A DNA stretch of 39,871 nt. Source: Chloroflexota bacterium. Lineage in GTDB: Bacteria > Chloroflexota > Dormibacteria > DASZGP01. Both the position numbers and the translations under genes were made by a program. The notes under the pieces were generated by a model that saw only the letters and a program-made list of their open reading frames with translations, searched no databases and was not told where the DNA came from. Of the stretch, positions 2,839 to 16,488 are shown piece by piece (positions within the stretch are counted from its first letter, which is position 1; each line of letters begins with the position of its first letter). The stretch covers positions 1 through 39,871 of the forward strand of contig JAXDLV010000224.1 of assembly GCA_034666445.1 (NCBI GenBank), written 5' to 3'.

Positions 2839-5679
2839 CTAGCTGCTGCTGCCCACTCCGCGGGCGATGTCCCAGCCCGGCCAGTAGGCGCTGGAATTGA
2901 CGGCGGGTGGCGTCGCGGTCGCCGCGAAGGGGTGAAGCCCGCCGTAGCCATCAAGGGTGTAGCCGCCGCTGCCACCCGTGAGGATGGTCACGCCACGGGC
3001 GATGTCCCAGCCCGTCCAGTAAGCGTGGGCGCTGTTCGCCACCGCCGGCGGCGGGGCGTTGCCGAATGGGTGGAGCCCGCCATAGCCGTCGAGGGTGTAG
3101 CCACCAACCAGGCCGCTCGCGCAGCGGGTCAGGACCAGCCCACGGGCGATGTTCCAGCCGGCCCAGTACTCGTGGCTGCCGTCGGCGACAGCGGGCACGC
3201 CGGGCCCCCACTGGTGGACACCGCCGTAGCCGTCGAGGGTGTAGCCGCTGCCGGGCACGTCAGGACACCCCGCGATCGACTCCGCGATGTCCCAGCCCGA
3301 CCAGTACCCGCTGATCGACGGGTCTGGCGGGTTGCCGGATGAGCCAAAGCCATGGACCCCGCCCCAGCCGTCCAGCGTGTACCCCCTCACCGACGGCAGG
3401 CAGCTGGTCAGCACCATGCCGCGGGCAATGTCCCAGCCATTCCAGTAGGCGTGCGCCCCGTCACCAATGTTGGGGGGCGCCGGGTCGCCAAACGGGTGGA
3501 CGCCGCCGTAGCCGTCCAGGGTGTACCCGCGGCGGTTGTCATCGGGGCACACCGCCACGGCGCGGGCGATGTCCCAGCCCCAGTAGGCGTGGCTGTTGTT
3601 CGCCACCGCCGGGCTGGTCCCGTAGCTGTGCACGCCGCCGTAGCCATCCAGGGTGTAGCCGCTGGGAACGTAGTTGAACGCTGCCGCGCGGGAGGCGCTG
3701 CCGCCTCCCTGGTTGGTCACCGACACGGTCACCTTGCCGTACGCGTGGCGTGGCACGACGACCTGGAGCTGGGTCGCCGAGAGGAAGGTGACCGCGGGCG
3801 AGGGTGTGCCGCCGAAGCTGACCGCCGGGGGGGCGCCCCCGGGGTTGGTGAACCCGCAGCCGTTGACCAGCACGGGGTCGCCGACCTGGCCGGCGCCCAG
3901 GCTGACGGAGTTGACCTGGAGGCTAGGGGTGACCGACCCCGACAGGATCATGGCCAGGTCGCCACCCCGGGGCGACCCCAGGCCGGTGGTGAAGTCCCAG
4001 CCGGCGGTCGCCTGGTACGCGAGGTTGCTGCCGCTGACGACGTCGTGGTACGGGGCGAGGTTGGCGGTGCACGCGGCGGCCCTGTACAGCCCTGGGTGGG
4101 GCCATCCCAGCCGGGGCCTGGCCTGCGCAATGGCGTACTGGTTGTACACGGCGCTGAGGCCGGCCCAGCCCGGCGACCCGGCGCTCGTGCCGGCCACCAC
4201 GGTCCAGGCACCTGCGGCGCAGCCGCTGGGGCCCTGGCAGGTGAAGACCGAGATGCCCGTGCGGGGGTCGGCGTCGAAGGCCACGTCGGGGACCTGCCGC
4301 CTGCCGTTGCTGTGGGGGTTGATCACCCCCGTGCCCGTTTGGTAGCTGGGGCGATTGAAGAACAGCGACAGGCCACCACCGGTCGCGATATCCGGGTTTG
4401 GGGCCGTGTTGGACCACGCGGTCTCTCCCCCGTACGCCGTCCCGTTGACGGTCAGGGCGGTGCCTCCCACGCCCACGACATAGGGGTCACTGGCGGGGCT
4501 GTCGACCACCAGGTGGTCGTTGAACGGGCGGCAGCCGTAGGCGCCGTGGTCACCGCTGGCAGCGTAGAAGCTGACGCCCTGCGCCGCTGCCTGCTGGAAG
4601 ATCTGGTCGAGGGTCAGCGACTCGGAGAGCGTCTGCAGCTCCTCGCAGAGGCCCCAGCTGGTGGAGCCGATGTCGAGGCTGCCGTCAGAGGCCATCGCCG
4701 AGTAGGCGTGGTTGACGCCCGGGTCGGTGTTGGGCGCCTCGTAAACGCGAATGACGACGTCACGGGCGACTCCCTGGAGGACCTCGATGTCCAGCTCGGC
4801 CTCGACCTGCCCGGGACCGGGGCTGGCCTGGTACCCGGGGGCGGCACCGTCGACGCTGATGATCGTGGGCGCCGGGAGGGGGGCGGCGTAGTAGTGGGCG
4901 TCGAAGGTGTTGACATCGCCCTGGTCGAAGCCGTCGAGCTCCAGCAGGCCCACCACCTGCCCCGCGCCGTTGCTGCCGGTCAGCGGCGCGCCGGCGACGT
5001 TGTACGCCCCCTTGACCTCGTTGGGCGTGTAGCCGCCGGCGGGTCCCGCCCCGGGTGCCCGCGGCTCTGCCGCCGAGGCGGCCGGCACGACGCGCGCGGC
5101 GTGGTGGCGGGTAACACGGTCCTGCAGTCCGTGCACGCCAAGGACCACGCCGGCCAGCGCGGCCGGCAGCGCAGGCACGAGGTCGTTGGCGTAGAACTCG
5201 CGACCCCCGTCCGGGTCACGGTAGCGGCCCAGCCTCGTGTGCAGGGCGCGGGCGATGGTGGACGCCGTCCCGCGGGCGTCGACCAGGGTGCGCGTGGTGT
5301 TGACGCCGGTCACCTCCAGCCCCGCGGCCGTGAGGAAGGTGCGGGCGGCCGCCACCTGCGCCGGCGTCGGCCCGAAGCGCGCGGTGAACTCGGCGGTCGT
5401 GAGGTAGCGCCCGTAGTCCGGGGAGCCCGGCGTCGACACCGCCTCCACCAGCGCGTCGAGCCCCGCCTGGTCGCGGAGCCGGAGCGCCAGCTGGATGTCC
5501 AGCACGCGTCCAGAGTCCACGTCGCCAAGCCGCTGCGCCGCCGCCAGCGCGGGTTGCAGCTCGCCGCGGGGGACCAGGTCGTCGGCGGCGGCGGGCGTGT
5601 ACCCGCCCAGCCCCCCGATGGCGGCGACCGCCGCCAGGACGGGCGCGAGCCGCCGCGTCACGCGCCGTCGGTACGGCAC
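2839..5679 (-). CDS. Secreted S53 (sedolisin/kumamolisin) peptidase with pro-domain, IPT/TIG domain and six C-terminal GYTLDGYGG repeats
   Basis: Signal peptide, then Pro-kumamolisin-like region (PGSPDYGRYLTTAEFTARFGPT). Catalytic E-x3-D (EAELD), oxyanion SGD and GTS nucleophile (AGTSAGSP) are present, as is the Ca-site-like GWDFTTGLGSP. An IPT-like segment (VLVNGCGF..VSFGG..QLQVVVP..VSVTN..FNY) follows. Confidence 0.9.
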   Translation of the reverse strand: MPYRRRVTRRLAPVLAAVAAIGGLGGYTPAAADDLVPRGELQPALAAAQRLGDVDSGRVLDIQLALRLRDQAGLDALVEAVSTPGSPDYGRYLTTAEFTARFGPTPAQVAAARTFLTAAGLEVTGVNTTRTLVDARGTASTIARALHTRLGRYRDPDGGREFYANDLVPALPAALAGVVLGVHGLQDRVTRHHAARVVPAASAAEPRAPGAGPAGGYTPNEVKGAYNVAGAPLTGSNGAGQVVGLLELDGFDQGDVNTFDAHYYAAPLPAPTIISVDGAAPGYQASPGPGQVEAELDIEVLQGVARDVVIRVYEAPNTDPGVNHAYSAMASDGSLDIGSTSWGLCEELQTLSESLTLDQIFQQAAAQGVSFYAASGDHGAYGCRPFNDHLVVDSPASDPYVVGVGGTALTVNGTAYGGETAWSNTAPNPDIATGGGLSLFFNRPSYQTGTGVINPHSNGRRQVPDVAFDADPRTGISVFTCQGPSGCAAGAWTVVAGTSAGSPGWAGLSAVYNQYAIAQARPRLGWPHPGLYRAAACTANLAPYHDVVSGSNLAYQATAGWDFTTGLGSPRGGDLAMILSGSVTPSLQVNSVSLGAGQVGDPVLVNGCGFTNPGGAPPAVSFGGTPSPAVTFLSATQLQVVVPRHAYGKVTVSVTNQGGGSASRAAAFNYVPSGYTLDGYGGVHSYGTSPAVANNSHAYWGWDIARAVAVCPDDNRRGYTLDGYGGVHPFGDPAPPNIGDGAHAYWNGWDIARGMVLTSCLPSVRGYTLDGWGGVHGFGSSGNPPDPSISGYWSGWDIAESIAGCPDVPGSGYTLDGYGGVHQWGPGVPAVADGSHEYWAGWNIARGLVLTRCASGLVGGYTLDGYGGLHPFGNAPPPAVANSAHAYWTGWDIARGVTILTGGSGGYTLDGYGGLHPFAATATPPAVNSSAYWPGWDIARGVGSSS
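2842..3660 (-). repeat. Six tandem ~45-aa protein repeats, GYTLDG(Y/W)GG(V/L)H...YWxGW(D/N)IA(R/E)
   Basis: Six copies counted in the translation. At DNA level, plus-strand 'gggtgtagcc' and 'gatgtcccagcc' recur. Confidence 0.9.
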
Positions 5680-11247: not shown

Positions 11248-11311
11248 ATGCTACACCCTGCCGCGGCGCTGCCCGGGAGGCGGCGGACGGGCCCGGGTTG
11301 TTGGATAGACT
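11248..11311. promoter_or_regulatory. Divergent -10 boxes: TAGCAT (11253-11248, -) for the FkbM gene and TAGACT (11306-11311, +) for ahcY
   Basis: TANNNT hexamers lie 6 and 7 nt before the respective GTG starts (11241 and 11319). No SD in either case. Confidence 0.55.
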
Positions 11312-11318
11312 TGCCGCC

Positions 11319-12593
11319 GTGAATGTGAAGACCGCCGTCCGGCACGACGTCACCGACCTTGGCCTCGCCGCCGAGGGCAAGCGCCTCATCGACTGGTCCG
11401 CCCGCGAGATGCCGGTGCTGCGGCAGATCCGGGAGCGCTTCGCGGCGGAGAAGCCGCTGCAGGGCATCCGCATGTCGGGCTGTCTTCACATCACCACCGA
11501 GACGGCCAACCTGGCGATCACCCTGCAGGCCGCCGGCGCCGACCTGACCCTCTGCGCCAGCAACCCGCTCTCCACCCAGGACCCGGTCGCCGCGGCGCTG
11601 GTCGCCGAGCACGGAATCGCCACCTTCGCGCGCAAGGGCGAGGACAACGACACCTACTACCAGCACATCAAGGCCGCGCTGGAGTCGATGCCCCAGATGA
11701 CGATGGACGATGGCTGCGACCTGGTGTCGGAGCTGCACCAGCGGCCCGAGTCGGCGACGGCCGAGGTGTTCGGTGGCCTTGAGGAGACGACCACAGGCGT
11801 CATCCGTCTCCGCGCGATGGAGAAGGCAGGGGTGCTGCGCTTCCCCATCGTCGCCGTCAACGAGGCGCTGACGAAGCACATGTTCGACAACCGCTACGGC
11901 ACCGGCCAGTCCACCCTCGACGGCATCATCCGCGCGACCAACACCCTGCTGGCGGGCAAGACGTTTGTCGTCTGCGGCTACGGGTGGTGCGGCCGCGGGC
12001 TGGCCAGCCGCGCGTCGGGCATGGGCGCCCACGTGGTGGTCACCGAGGTCGACCCGCTGCGTGCCCTGGAGGCCGTGATGGACGGCTACCGGGTCGCCCG
12101 CCTGGAGGACATCGCCCCTGAGGCCGACTTCGTGGTCACCGTCACCGGCGACCTCAACGTGATCGACCGGCGCCACATCGAGAAGCTCAAGGACGGCGCC
12201 ATCGTGGCCAACTCGGGCCACTTCAACGACGAGATCAACATCACGGCGATGGACGAGATGAGCACCGAGGTCAAGCGGGTGCGCACCTTCGTCGACGAGT
12301 ACCGCCTGCAGGATGGGCGCTCCGTCTTCCTGCTCGGTGAGGGCCGCCTGATCAACCTGGCGGCGGCCGAGGGTCACCCCGCCGCGGTGATGGACATGAG
12401 CTTTGCCAACCAGGCGCTGTCGGCCGAGTACATGGCGAAGAACCACGCCAGCCTGGACAAGAAGGTCTACGACGTCCCCGAGGAGATCGACAAGGAGGTC
12501 GCCAAGCTCAAGCTCGCGGCGATGGAGGTCGACATCGACGTCCTGACCCCCGAGCAGGAGAAGTACCTGGCCTCCTGGGAGTCGGGAACCTAA
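11319..12593 (+). CDS. ahcY: Adenosylhomocysteinase (SAH hydrolase)
   Basis: Motifs [76 protein letters not shown] and MDMSFANQ. Start taken as GTG 11319. Confidence 0.97.
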
Positions 12594-12606
12594 GTCGTTC
12601 GGCTCA

Positions 12607-13219
12607 CGAGATCTGCCGACAGCAGCGGCTGATCTGTAGTCACCAGGCCGGCCGACGCCGCACATCCTGGGGGTTCATCCGGCCGGCGCCGCGACCAGGC
12701 CTTTCAAATCGCACCGCGCCGGCCTGCCTGCGCGGGCGGCCGCGCTGGCATCAGCCGTGGGTCTCTGCTTTCCGCCCGCTCCGGAAATCACCCCCAGGAT
12801 GCGCGACGCCGTCCGCCCTGGACTGCGCACCACGGCGCCGCTGCTCTGATCCGCGATGTCCTCATCGGAGGTGGGGGCAGCCGTTGACCACTTGTCGACA
12901 GCGGCAGGGCAAGCGCCGCGCCGTTGAGCTGCCGAAGGTAACCGCGGGCAGAGAACACCTCTAACAAGTCATCGCGGATAGAGGGACGGCTACCCCCGCG
13001 CGCAGTCCCGAGTGCCGGGTGCTGCAGACCCGGGGGCGATTTACGGAGCGGGCGGGATACGCACCTGGCAGGAGATGACCGGATCACGGCCGCACGCGCA
13101 GTAGGCCGGCGCAGTGGCATTGGAATCGCTGAACGCAGCGCCGGCCGCATGAGCCCTCGGGTCTGCGGCTCCCGGCGCCAGGGCCACCCGATACCCGCGG
13201 CAGCTGCCGCGATATCTCG
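12607..13219. repeat. ~613-bp nested imperfect palindrome (non-coding, possible structured RNA or ssDNA element)
   Basis: Exact inverted blocks in near-constant register about a centre at ~12913: 12607-12612/13214-13219, 12680-12689/13138-13147, 12716-12725/13103-13112, 12772-12783/13044-13055, 12820-12828/13000-13008, 12849-12858/12970-12979 and 12868-12873/12956-12961. Each arm is also self-complementary. Confidence 0.9.
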
Positions 13220-13221
13220 GG

Positions 13222-16200
13222 TCAGGCGGCGAGCTCACCCGTCAGGAGGGTGGGGGAGAACTGGCCCGAGATCGGCCCCGCACCGGCGTGGATCGTCACC
13301 CCGGGCGCGTTCCGGTTGGTCTTCCACTTCAGCTTGAAGACGTAATCGTGGCCTGTCGTCATCGCGAACTTCGTCTGCACGAACGCGGCGTTGGGAGAGA
13401 ACGTGCCGGCGAAGCCGCCGCTCTCCTTCCAGGCGAGCAGGGTGTCGCCGCCGCCGTTGTCGCTGACGAAGATGCCGATGTCCTGGTTGTAGCCGGCGAC
13501 CTCGGTCCAGAGGTCGATGTTGCCGCCCAGGAGCATCGAGCCGGAAACCGCCGGGGTGAACGCGAAGGTCGTCGCGCTGCTGAGCGTCTGCCATGTCAGG
13601 CCGTTCGAGCCGTTGAGGCTGAACTGCCCGGTGGAACGGCCGCTCAGGGGGTTGACGTCGTGGGGGATGACCTGGGCAGAGAGGCTCGTCGGCGAGAACG
13701 CGCCGTTGAACGGACCGGCGCCGGCGTGGATCGTCACCCCGGACGCGGGCCTGTTCGCCTTCCACTTCAGCTTGAAGGTGTAACTGTGCCCCGCCACCAT
13801 CGTGTGCGTCGCTTTGACGAATGCGGCGTTGGGCGAGAACGTCCCGGCAAAACCGCCGGACTCCTTCCAGGCGACCAGCTGGTCACCGCCGCTGTTGTCG
13901 CTGACGAAGATCGCGAGGTCCTGGTTGTAGCCGGCGGTATCGGTCCACAGGTCGGCACTGCCACCCAGCACGGCCGTCGAGTCGCCAGTCGGGTTGAGGG
14001 TGGCGCTGGCGCCCAGCAGCTGCCAGGTGACACCGTTGGAGTTCGCCAGGGATTGCTGGAAAGTGGTCACCCCGAAGCTGGGCACCACGCCGACGGGGAA
14101 GGACTGCACGGTCAGGGACGTGGGCGAGAAGAGCCCGCCGAGCGGCCCGGCCCCGGCGTGGATGGTGTTAGCCGGGGCGGGCTTGTTGGGTTTCCACTTC
14201 AGCTTGAAGGTGTACGAGTCGCCTCCGGTCATGCTGTAGGCCACCTGGACGAAGGCTGCGTTGGGCGAGAAGGTCCCGGCAAAGCCCCCGGACTCCTTCC
14301 AGGCCAGCAGCTCGTCAGCGCCGCTGTTGTGGGACACGAAGATGCCAAGGTCCTGGTTGTAACCCTCGCTCGAGGTCCAGAGGTCGGCGTTGGCGGTCAC
14401 CAGCGCGGTGCGGTTGTTGCCCCCGGGTGAGTTGATCAGCAGGTTGGCCGGGTCCAGCTCAACCCAGGTCGCCCCATTGTTGGCGCTCGCCAGGGTGTAC
14501 TGCGCTGTTCGCGACACGGTATTGACAAAGGGCAGCGCCGGGGCCGGCTGGACGTCGACGAAGCCGGTCACCGTCACCGCCTGGCCGTCCGGGTTGGTGA
14601 TGGTGAGGTCCTGCGGCCCGACGCTCGCGGCGCTCGTGTCGAGGCTGAGGCTGACGTGCGTGGGGTCGATGTAGCTGACGCTGTTGACCACCACCCCCCC
14701 GGTGATGGCGGCCTGGAGGTGGTTGGGGATGTTGGCGGCGGGGTCGAAGAAGCCGCTGCCGCTGACGGACGTGCCGGTGACCGAGAGCGTGGTGGCGGTG
14801 CGGTTGGTGAAGACCGGGCCGCTGCTGGACGTCGGCGTCGCCGGCGGCGGCGCGAGCAGCCTGACCGCCTCGACGCCCCACGAGTCGTTGGCGTTGGTGA
14901 ACTCCTGGATGGTCCACATGGTCATGTCATCGCTGGGGTCGAGGCTGGTGTAGGAGTAGTCGCCCCAGCGGTGCGGGTTGGCGCTGTCCGCGACGTTGTA
15001 GGTGAAGGCGCTCGCCTGGTAGATCACCGGGGTTTGCATCGTGCCGGGGCTGTCGCCCACCAGCCGCCCCATCGTGGCCGCCTCGGCGTGCTCGAGGTTG
15101 CCGGCGACGCTGCTTCCCATCGCAACGTGGCCCTGGCCCGACACCATCAGCGAAGGGATGAAGTAGAAGCGCGGGTTGGTGGCCGCCGGGTCGAACACCG
15201 TGCCGGACTGGTTGAGCGATGGCGCGGCCGCGAGGTTGCCGATGTCATACCAGCGAATCGCGTCGCGATCAGCCGTGCAGTTGCCGCCGGAGACCGTCGC
15301 CACCCCGCCGCTGTTGACGCAGATGTTGTGAGCGGTCCACAGGTGCCCGGCCCGAAGGTGCGCGGCCATCAGGCGGTCGTCCGTGGCGTCGAGGTTCACC
15401 GTGCTGCCGAGCGCGGGCACGCCGAGCGGGGACGACGTCAGCGGGACTGACAGCGCCAGGAGGGTGGCGCTGGGGCTGGTGCCAGGGTTGCTGACCCGGG
15501 CGATGTCGAGGCGCCCGAACACGCAGACCGAGATGCCGATGAAGAAGCCCTGGGTCGCACCCGGCGAGAGGTTGTCCACCCCCTGCGGCGAGTAGGGGCC
15601 GTCACCTCCGGAGCCGCAGGTTGTGCCGTTGGGGGACAGGATGAAATGGGTCGGGGACGGGGTGTTGGCGAGCAGCCCGGCTTTGGGGATTACCAGCCCG
15701 TCCGAGCCGGCGAAGGTCGTCACGTTGTTGCAGAAGACGTTGCCGCCGATATAGAGGGCACTGGCGTCTATCCCCAGGGTGTCGTAGTCCCACGCGCAGC
15801 TGGGGCGGAAGTTGGTGACGGGGAAGAACCCGCCCTGGAACAGGGTGGAGTTGGTGACCACGCCGCCGTTGGTGTAGCCCACCAGGATCTTGTTGCTGGG
15901 GGACTCGGCGGTGATCATCGTGAAGAACCACCGGTCGGTGAGGCGGTCGTAGCGGATGCGGGGATCCGACGTGCCGGCCTGGCCCCAGAACGCGTTGGTG
16001 GTCATGTCCAGCACCCCATCCGCCACGCCGGTGGCCTTGTTGAAGCTGCGGATGCGGCCGTTGATCATCACGATGTACTGGGTCGGGCCGACGGCGCCCA
16101 TGCTGTCCGGGGGCACCGCGCCGGAGTCACTCAGCTGGGCGCCGAGGAACTGCGTTCCCGGGGTCTGGGGCAGCAGCGGGCCGCGTACCGGGGCGCGCGC

Positions 16201-16488
16201 CGGCGAGGAGGTCGCCGGGTCGGCGGTGGCGTGCAGCTGGGCCGAGCCGGGGTCGACGCCGCGCTCCCCGCGCAGCGCCGGTCGCGGCGCCCGGGCGGTG
16301 GGCGGGCCAGGCACCGGGGCCATGGCGCGCAGCTGCGCCACGCTCCGCGCCGGGAGCATCGTCATCTGCACCTGGGTGCCCTTCACCACGCGACCGGCGT
16401 CGGTGGTCGCGGCGAGCGCGCCGTGTGGGAACATCGCCGCGGCCGCCACCACGGTGATGGCGGCAAGGTCGCGTAGCGTCCGCCCCAT
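13222..16488 (-). CDS. Large secreted protein: putative beta-propeller domain, Ig/IPT-like domain and three C-terminal WKESGG repeats
   Basis: Signal peptide ending ..HGALA and a Pro-rich segment. Motifs PPDSMGAVGP, SDPRIRYD and RWGDYS. Ig-like stretch VVNSVSYIDPTHVSL..QDLTITNPDGQ. Three ~140-aa terminal repeats. Confidence 0.8.
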   Translation of the reverse strand: MGRTLRDLAAITVVAAAAMFPHGALAATTDAGRVVKGTQVQMTMLPARSVAQLRAMAPVPGPPTARAPRPALRGERGVDPGSAQLHATADPATSSPARAPVRGPLLPQTPGTQFLGAQLSDSGAVPPDSMGAVGPTQYIVMINGRIRSFNKATGVADGVLDMTTNAFWGQAGTSDPRIRYDRLTDRWFFTMITAESPSNKILVGYTNGGVVTNSTLFQGGFFPVTNFRPSCAWDYDTLGIDASALYIGGNVFCNNVTTFAGSDGLVIPKAGLLANTPSPTHFILSPNGTTCGSGGDGPYSPQGVDNLSPGATQGFFIGISVCVFGRLDIARVSNPGTSPSATLLALSVPLTSSPLGVPALGSTVNLDATDDRLMAAHLRAGHLWTAHNICVNSGGVATVSGGNCTADRDAIRWYDIGNLAAAPSLNQSGTVFDPAATNPRFYFIPSLMVSGQGHVAMGSSVAGNLEHAEAATMGRLVGDSPGTMQTPVIYQASAFTYNVADSANPHRWGDYSYTSLDPSDDMTMWTIQEFTNANDSWGVEAVRLLAPPPATPTSSSGPVFTNRTATTLSVTGTSVSGSGFFDPAANIPNHLQAAITGGVVVNSVSYIDPTHVSLSLDTSAASVGPQDLTITNPDGQAVTVTGFVDVQPAPALPFVNTVSRTAQYTLASANNGATWVELDPANLLINSPGGNNRTALVTANADLWTSSEGYNQDLGIFVSHNSGADELLAWKESGGFAGTFSPNAAFVQVAYSMTGGDSYTFKLKWKPNKPAPANTIHAGAGPLGGLFSPTSLTVQSFPVGVVPSFGVTTFQQSLANSNGVTWQLLGASATLNPTGDSTAVLGGSADLWTDTAGYNQDLAIFVSDNSGGDQLVAWKESGGFAGTFSPNAAFVKATHTMVAGHSYTFKLKWKANRPASGVTIHAGAGPFNGAFSPTSLSAQVIPHDVNPLSGRSTGQFSLNGSNGLTWQTLSSATTFAFTPAVSGSMLLGGNIDLWTEVAGYNQDIGIFVSDNGGGDTLLAWKESGGFAGTFSPNAAFVQTKFAMTTGHDYVFKLKWKTNRNAPGVTIHAGAGPISGQFSPTLLTGELAA
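13225..14520 (-). repeat. Three ~140-aa repeats (ADLWT..GYNQDxxIFVS..AWKESGGFAGTFSPNAAFV..YxFKLKWK..AGAGP..FSPT)
   Basis: Three copies visible in the translation of 13222-16488. Confidence 0.9.

Follow-up and report, generated by a model that had tools for sequence, protein, structure and literature searches.

A long repeat, probably a foldback MITE-like element, with a nested hairpin in each arm, wedged between convergent genes of a Chloroflexota bacterium

[quoted passage not shown] MITEs generally have terminal inverted repeats of at least ~10-15 bp and target duplications of 2-10 bp. Eukaryotic foldback elements and long-inverted-repeat MITEs consist almost entirely of their arms, and the hairpin of full length is their dominant fold. 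IS630 itself reportedly prefers CTAG, going by the title of a 1991 report by Tenzen and Ohtsubo. Most MITEs of prokaryotes are confined to one species, and their sizes range from 50 to 800 bp (PMC11602168); MITE transcripts form stable stem-loops (PMC10969869). Duplication of TA is described for IS630-family elements (PMC2170065) and a 6-bp duplication, NCTAGN, for IS481-family elements (PMC2516522). Here we analysed a 39,871-nt contig stretch of a Chloroflexota bacterium (assembly GCA_034666445.1, contig JAXDLV010000224.1), hereafter the window, in whose positions the element coordinates are given. In the window, a 628-nt intergenic gap between two convergent genes holds a nested palindrome. 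We consider this region probably a copy of a non-autonomous, transposon-like repeat of ~640 bp, that is, a long foldback MITE. The element is lineage-restricted, unusually long and MITE-like in its foldback form, with a conserved nested hairpin in each arm. A preliminary description had likened the palindrome to REPIN/BIME doublets; its insertion in three copies and its terminal inverted repeats change that identity.

The genome, a metagenome-assembled genome (MAG) of a soil bacterium with 2.62 Mb in 242 contigs (93% complete, 70.4% GC), contains three copies of the element, one at 12593-13221 of the window (~629 nt) and one on each of two other contigs (C199:10287-10932 and C68:12459-13104). 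They are 91-93% identical over ~635 nt while their flanks share no similarity, and an nhmmer profile of the three copies matches exactly these three in the 2.62 Mb. The C199 and C68 copies are complete at 641-642 nt, and the window copy is short by ~12-13 nt at its right terminus. In the two complete copies, the ends form a terminal inverted repeat that consists of a perfect 11-12-bp core within an imperfect repeat of ~34 nt. The left core, GGCTCACGAGAT (12601-12612, + strand), is invariant in all three copies and pairs with the right-end ATCTCGTGAGC of the C199 and C68 copies, in both of whose predicted folds the two termini are paired. Of the right terminal repeat, the three-copy alignment leaves the window copy a remnant, ATCTCG (13214-13219, + strand), the remainder being missing. 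The two complete copies disagree with each other in the final 3-4 nt of the right end.

All three copies are wedged stop codon to stop codon between convergent open reading frames (ORFs), and the element is itself non-coding. GC content at the third codon position is 0.89-0.95 in all six ORFs that flank the copies and is flat inside the element (0.68-0.72 over codon positions), which indicates that the flanking ORFs are truly coding. No conserved small ORF is present in the element, as the open stretches differ among the copies and the substitutions are spread over codon positions as 21/14/14. In the window, the left neighbour is an S-adenosyl-L-homocysteine hydrolase gene (11298-12593, + strand; Pfam AdoHcyase 1e-60, AdoHcyase_NAD 6e-55) with its TAA stop at 12591-12593 and GC by codon position of 0.66/0.42/0.95. 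The right neighbour in the ORF list encodes 1088 aa (13222-16488, - strand), its stop reading TCA on the + strand at 13222-13224; it has no Pfam family at E 0.001, and its GC by codon position (0.59/0.54/0.93) marks it as coding. At the C199 copy, the neighbours are a gene with a LON substrate-binding domain and an ORF without a family name; at the C68 copy, they are a CYTH-domain gene and a gene for an isocitrate/isopropylmalate dehydrogenase.

The MAG also contains six long palindromes (C120:1-350, C150:15038-15344, C234:1-281, C42:4184-4461, C202:4418-4660 and C216:9789-10005; 217-350 nt, 78-94% self-complementary) that run through apparent coding sequence. We considered them as a related family and rejected them, because each of them reaches a contig end and is most likely an artefact of fold-back during assembly. 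Their presence favours an artefactual origin of the element as well, namely as a fold-back chimera from the assembler or the library, to which we nevertheless give an almost negligible probability. The element lies in the interior of its contigs (39.9, 41.7 and 11.5 kb), its three occurrences are 91-93% and not 100% identical, and its arms are just 72-74% alike. In addition, other sequencing runs yielded contigs that span the left junction, the central part at 12833-13022 (0 differences) and the right junction at 13093-13243 (0 differences). Contigs of four soil runs, one of which may be the source sample, carry parts of the element together with the flanks of the C199 copy, and the repeat therefore exists in related populations.

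The insertion sites of the three copies have a common form. TA is found on both sides of the two complete copies (2/2), and removal of the element and one TA leaves AAC-TA-GGT at the C199 site and GCC-TA-GGG at the C68 site. Counting an empty allele of the window locus, in which the hydrolase stop lies inside CTAG, CTAG is reconstructed at 3/3 sites. This tetramer occurs 921 times in the genome, which is 0.13 of expectation and accounts for 3% of the 28,835 TA. As a separate observation, CTAG, TTAA, CTAA and TTAG all stand at 0.13-0.17 of the base-composition expectation genome-wide, and GATC is 2.35x over-represented. In the window copy, the presumed target, which reads CTAG in the empty allele, has its left TA at 12591-12592, and this TA together with the first base of the element, A, makes up the TAA stop of the hydrolase gene; the same arrangement is seen in the other two copies. 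With A, A or G as its first base and C or T as its last, the element puts a purine after the left TA and a pyrimidine before the right one, so that both flanking genes keep their stop codons.

The empty allele was found in a contig of one soil run (X2; 363 nt, depth 3.4), which fits 13224-13554 of the window with 5 differences. It runs leftward through a 16-nt spacer into the end of the hydrolase gene, where the TAG stop lies within CTAG, and it contains no element. The identity of this contig with the left flank of the window ends exactly after TA, and the two diverge from there on. The other two sites could be compared with those of family relatives, in which the C199- and C68-type convergent pairs are kept at 58-86% protein identity. 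AAC TAG is the end of the LON-domain gene in the three nearest relatives that carry it (G002, G003 and G004). Between the dehydrogenase and CYTH genes there is no element: 5 nt separate their stops in G002, and in G004 the two overlap by 11 nt. Synteny downstream of the hydrolase gene is lost in the family relatives. We also noticed that six of the relatives (loci L083, L084, L086, L088, L089 and L091) have ~340-400 nt between the dehydrogenase and CYTH stops, and that this interval resembles a conserved small gene in the five whose sequence was inspected (all but L088).

The gap at 12593-13221 folds as one long rod of -367.3 kcal/mol on the + strand and -387.4 kcal/mol on the - strand (z -9.8 and -10.7 against 20 shuffles, -7.5 and -10.7 against 30), centred near 12915. 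The full-length rod is found in 3/3 copies, and the element arms that form it are 72-74% alike. Each arm can also pair with itself, and every pairing that the preliminary description had listed is present when read directly from the sequence. In the left arm, these are 12621-12629 with 12837-12845 (9 bp) and 12663-12673 with 12791-12801 (11 bp), both perfect, and 12721-12724 with 12738-12741 (4 bp); in the right arm, 13021-13037 with 13153-13169 (17 bp, two of them G-T/G-U pairs) and 12971-12977 with 13207-13213 (7 bp). An inverted-repeat search recovers a left local stem at 12643-12674/12790-12821 (32 nt, 84% complementary) and a right one at 13007-13037/13153-13183 (31 nt, 81% complementary), each with 115 nt between the stem arms. 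Folded alone, the left arm of the window copy is significantly stable (z -4.9 on the + and -5.7 on the - strand; 0/100 dinucleotide shuffles equally stable) and the right arm is weak (z -2.6 with 1/100 shuffles and -1.2 with 10/100). In the other two copies both arms are significant, with z -5.0 to -7.6 for the left and -2.8 to -4.3 for the right. The fold of the central piece, 12846-12970, is not significant on either strand (z -1.4 and -0.2).

Two mutually exclusive folds, a single rod and a three-hairpin form, had been proposed for the palindrome, and the computed energies agree with this. With both local stems enforced, the fold reaches -341.5 (+) and -365.3 (-) kcal/mol; the three-hairpin form thus lies 22-26 kcal/mol above the rod, yet it is far below the shuffle means of ~-304 and ~-315. 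The related idea of a switch between the two was borne out in part: both alternatives are far stabler than shuffles, but the local form is negligible at equilibrium, where the pair probability of the local core is ~1e-20. DNA parameters give the same ranking, with the rod at -195/-200 and the arms at ~-62 to -82 each. The picture differs when growing prefixes are folded as a crude proxy for co-transcriptional folding. On the + strand, the local core stem of the first arm is the minimum-energy fold of prefixes of ~230-450 nt (11/11 pairs), and on the - strand of those of ~230-400 nt (15/17 pairs); in longer prefixes the rod replaces it in both directions of synthesis. By this proxy, the expectation that the local hairpins are favoured during synthesis holds on both strands. 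The models thus suggest that the rod is favoured at equilibrium and that the local hairpins would form first as the strand is made.

The local stems contain a core that occurs four times. We denote the quarters of the element Q1 to Q4 and their reverse complements rc. In pairwise alignments, Q1~Q2rc (z 8.7), Q1~Q4rc (z 9.9) and Q2rc~Q3 (z 6.3) are each matched by 0/300 shuffles, while Q3~Q4rc reaches just z 1.5 (28/300 shuffles as good) and the direct comparisons Q1~Q3 and Q2rc~Q4rc are not above shuffles. The four-way alignment shows a core of ~35-40 nt that is common to all four quarters (12641-12676, 12788-12823, 13005-13039 and 13151-13185), beyond which each quarter is like its rod partner alone. 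A unit of ~125 nt had been said to occur four times in alternating orientation; this stands for the 35-40-nt core and not for the rest of the quarter. In the left arm, the local stem extends over 12643-12680 (5' half, including core Q1; columns 36-73 of the consensus fold described below) and 12783-12821 (3' half, including core Q2; alignment columns 178-216). Its right-arm counterpart is formed by 13007-13037 (core Q3) and 13153-13183 (core Q4). These assignments rest on the inverted repeats together with the consensus fold for the left arm and the duplex energies for the right; the duplex energies of the local cores are -51.1 (left) and -65.8 (right) kcal/mol on the + strand and -66.5 and -55.1 kcal/mol on the - strand.

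The core and its surroundings differ in the history that they record. Quarters of the same arm (Q1 with Q2rc, Q3 with Q4rc) are united by 6 substitutions and 1 indel of the core and by one more substitution in the poorly aligned outer part, and no core site unites rod partners. Beyond the core, rod partners are united at 15 sites and 11 gap columns, and arm partners at that one outer site alone. No site supports a direct pairing of quarters. Between the arms, the core differs by 6 compensatory pair changes and one matched indel, which keep the local hairpins and weaken the rod there. Because of this mosaic pattern, the core duplexes are stabler in the local arrangement than in the rod, where they amount to -44.4 and -34.3 (+) and -37.6 and -43.0 (-) kcal/mol. 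Two successive inverted duplications followed by neutral decay, as had been suggested for the origin of the element, predict the opposite core pattern and cannot explain the mosaic. The mosaic requires compensatory evolution under selection, or hairpin-templated correction within each arm. The local hairpins have been selected or repaired against themselves and, to judge from this pattern, must in either case have formed physically.

Six versions of one hairpin, namely the left arms of the three copies and the reverse complements of their right arms, were also aligned. The RNAalifold consensus predicts a long-range stem of 23-26 pairs, in 6 of which both partners differ between the left-arm and right-arm groups, and a single cell of which is broken. 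Over the consensus pairs, 98.6% of cells are paired as against 42-45% with slid partners; 9 pairs (six in the long stem) are changed on both sides as against 0-3 in the slid controls, and the covariation score is 0.276 as against at most 0.067, the structure being derived from the same sequences on which the pairs were scored. The site patterns of the four quarters lead to the same result. The covariation rests effectively on two lineages, the left and the right arm, with the six co-changes on one branch.

Variation among the three copies is unevenly distributed. Among the 71 variable sites, 48 lie in three zones that total 151 of the ~620 nt and coincide with the poorly paired parts of the rod. 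Zone 1 (12739-12771; 9/71 sites) and zone 3 (13059-13087; 11/71) face each other across a poorly paired internal stretch, and zone 2 (12876-12964; 28/71) is the tip. A 104-nt internal block, 12772-12875, has one change among the copies. Covariation among the three copies is too sparse to be informative: of the 226 rod pairs on the + strand, 22 are broken, 10 changed on one side and 1 is compensated. The mismatches between the arms are mainly transversions. A strand-specific G-U bias, which would be a sign of RNA-level selection, is weak (9 vs 19, 12 vs 13 and 17 vs 22).

A near invariance of the well-paired blocks, with 48/71 differences in the poorly paired zones, is what one might see in a multi-copy structured non-coding RNA gene, or in a cis-acting 3' untranslated element (a two-sided terminator, an insulator or an RNA stabiliser) that the host keeps, its mobility being incidental or long past. 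The very strong predicted structure on both strands, the six compensatory pair changes that keep the hairpin of each arm and the position between convergent genes in 3/3 copies favour the same explanation, as does the prediction that each direction of transcription would meet a complete local hairpin first. We consider it unlikely all the same, though it is the strongest of the competing explanations. The changes among the copies mostly break rod pairs, the wobble bias between strands is weak, and the whole window has 0 matches in Rfam 15 at the gathering score. The best nearby is a sub-threshold narK match at the rod tip (12853-12922, - strand; 25 bits vs 43.2, E 0.045), which is probably due to chance. 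Inside 12593-13221 there is no promoter-like site and no GC-rich hairpin followed by a T/U run, and a classical intrinsic terminator was rejected on the latter ground.

The distribution of the element also speaks against a structure that the host maintains. A near relative lacks it at the window locus, and it is absent from 10/10 other genomes of the family (the whole order as sampled), even those that keep the convergent pairs with stops 5 nt apart or overlapping; BLAST against these ten gave just 25-49-nt GC-rich matches. No relative was found in 373 other genomes of the class, two of which gave short, chance-like matches of 29-35 nt, and no match was obtained in 400 other genomes of the phylum or, by distant blastn, in plasmids and phages. 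An exact 20-mer that is conserved in both arms of all copies was also used for scans, which may leave out records of the window's own genome. It occurs at 24 loci in genome contigs and 24 in metagenome contigs, all of them single and all rejected by the nhmmer profile of the element (the best with E 0.02-0.035 over <=66 nt), and at 0 loci in viral contigs.

The shared core at four places in alternating orientation, and stems kept by compensation as would be expected if folded single-stranded DNA were the substrate, recall a REPIN/BIME-like array, in which hairpin units are multiplied and moved by a REP-associated tyrosine transposase (RAYT) or another HUH transposase that recognises local hairpins. 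This explanation, which takes up the analogy of the preliminary description, appears highly improbable to us. An nhmmer profile of the quarter-unit matches the 12 quarters of the three copies only, the next match having E 2.4, so monomer and dimer forms occur nowhere else in the 2.62 Mb; nor was a Y1_Tnp (RAYT) domain found in the genome. The element has terminal inverted repeats and TA flanks, both of which are, to our knowledge, lacking in IS200/IS605-type and REP elements. Three copies are also few as against the hundreds that are typical of REPs (PMC2817692).

The genome encodes one IS481-family transposase, of 395 aa with rve, rve_3, HTH_32 and LZ_Tnp_IS481 domains, in an element at C13:6508-8845 (locus L105, 1075-2262, + strand). 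The transposase gene directly follows what by eye appears to be a tRNA gene, its element reaches the contig end, and the element carries repeated CTTCGG..TTGACA-like subterminal motifs.

Several observations weigh against an origin of the element by MITE-like transposition. DDE_3 (PF13358), HTH_Tnp_IS630 (PF01710), DDE_Tnp_1 and Y1_Tnp (PF01797) have 0 hits each in the genome, which as a 93%-complete MAG in 242 contigs belongs to a type of assembly from which insertion sequences are often missing. We rejected the IS481-family element on C13 as a parent, since shuffles match the ends of the repeat as well as its own ends do (156-359/500 score as high). There are just three copies, which is low for a MITE, and no relative elsewhere. 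Just one contig, low in depth and overhanging by 32 letters, supports the empty allele. Nor is the insertion of the window copy clean: both its right terminus and the empty allele's 16-nt spacer are missing. The target duplication is ambiguous: TA is exact in 2/2 complete copies and the 6-mers are imperfect, with NCTAGN-type 6-mers matching 5/6 and 5/6 at the complete copies and 4/6 between the left side of the window copy and the empty allele. The comparison of copies gives no positive evidence of selection on the rod, as most changes break pairs. Finally, the uneven conservation exceeds the neutral decay expected of inert copies and hints at an additional constraint, which could reflect parts needed by the mobilising machinery or a role at the level of the host.

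From these data we propose the following course of events. An old inverted duplication, whose arms are now ~72-74% alike, would have given rise to an element that folds into a full-length rod, and the 23-26-bp GC-rich stem of each arm would have been kept paired by compensatory changes. There would have been at least three insertions in this genome, all of them at CTAG-type sites formed by the stops of two convergent genes, so that the target TA, or possibly a longer CTAG-containing stretch, came to lie on both sides. A DDE transposase with a preference for CTAG, either IS630-like or IS481-like, may have moved the element in trans. When either convergent gene is transcribed, the first arm would fold locally before the second arm exists, and each gene would thereby receive a stable 3' hairpin; the full-length rod would form only if synthesis runs through and the structure rearranges. 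More speculatively, the element might be a self-spreading, two-sided 3'-end cassette that lands in a CTAG common to two convergent stops, rebuilds both stops with its own terminal bases, supplies each gene with a hairpin kept by compensation and switches more slowly to a 300-bp rod, upon run-through of transcription or replication only. In another speculative reading, the conserved local hairpins might be recognised by a transposition system not yet described that acts on single-stranded DNA. We find these possibilities improbable.

The element shows in nature how two folds of one long sequence can compete, and its compensatory changes suggest that the locally formed fold, and not solely the most stable one, mattered in evolution. 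It also illustrates that the narrowest of spaces, between stop codons that abut, can be taken up by a mobile element with no harm to either gene. Since CTAG occurs at 0.13 of its expected frequency, overlapping stop codons become a niche for insertion. Should the hairpins act on both transcripts at their 3' ends, elements of this kind would provide GC-rich bacteria with ready-made bidirectional terminators or insulators. For annotation, the locus is a warning that a 630-nt "intergenic palindrome" can be an insertion and not a regulatory structure of the host. A keyword search of the literature, which cannot establish absence, turned up no bacterial MITE with a nested hairpin conserved arm by arm, and no insertion between overlapping convergent stop codons.

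Some features of the genome were noted beside the element. The tmRNA, which together with a bacterial RNase P identifies the host as a bacterium, has the tag AKNTQSLALAA, and a tRNA-Sec gene is present as well (both aragorn). Elsewhere in the window, the region 2853-3663 contains internal repeats and is 66-76% related to stretches on contigs C17, C71, C73 and C60, of which C17 in turn matches C180; this set resembles a gene family of repeat-domain proteins.

In comparison with described systems, the element shares with the IS481 family a CTAG-containing target (3/3 sites), flanking 6-mers that match 5/6 at each of the two complete copies, and the presence of an IS481-family transposase gene in its genome. 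The insertion site also supplies stop codons in ISLxc2 (PMC2516522). Unlike in IS481, the termini are not significantly similar to the resident IS481-family ends, and the left 6-mer of the window copy matches the empty allele at 4/6 whereas the TA boundary fits exactly. As in IS630/Tc1-mariner-derived elements, TA lies within CTAG at 3/3 sites, although, in contrast to IS630-derived MITEs, no IS630-type transposase was found in the element's genome. With REP, REPIN and BIME sequences, it has in common that hairpin-forming repeats are extragenic and alternate in orientation, REPs often being located at gene 3' ends; it differs from them in being 15-30x larger than a REP, whose hairpin units of 20-40 nt come in high numbers as singlets and doublets, in its terminal inverted repeats and in having neither a population of units nor a detectable RAYT gene.

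In overall shape, the element resembles eukaryotic foldback elements and long-inverted-repeat MITEs, in which the arms are likewise almost of full length and the whole-length hairpin is dominant, although here the host is bacterial, the arms are old and diverged (72-74% alike) and they are not composed of tandem subrepeats. Typical MITEs are <500 bp and AT-rich, whereas this element is much longer, has ~70% GC and is present in just 3 copies; and, unlike the TA-duplicating MITEs, it is palindromic over its whole length and has a second conserved hairpin in each arm. With these same TA-duplicating MITEs, it shares the lack of coding capacity, the terminal inverted repeats, TA on both sides, the intergenic position, the restriction to a species, a transcript that is predicted to form a stable stem-loop and a size inside 50-800 bp. 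As far as can be read from sequence, most of the features that define MITEs thus appear to be present, namely inverted termini, the absence of coding function, copies at unrelated sites, size, species restriction, a polymorphism of filled and empty sites and a transcript with a predicted stem-loop.

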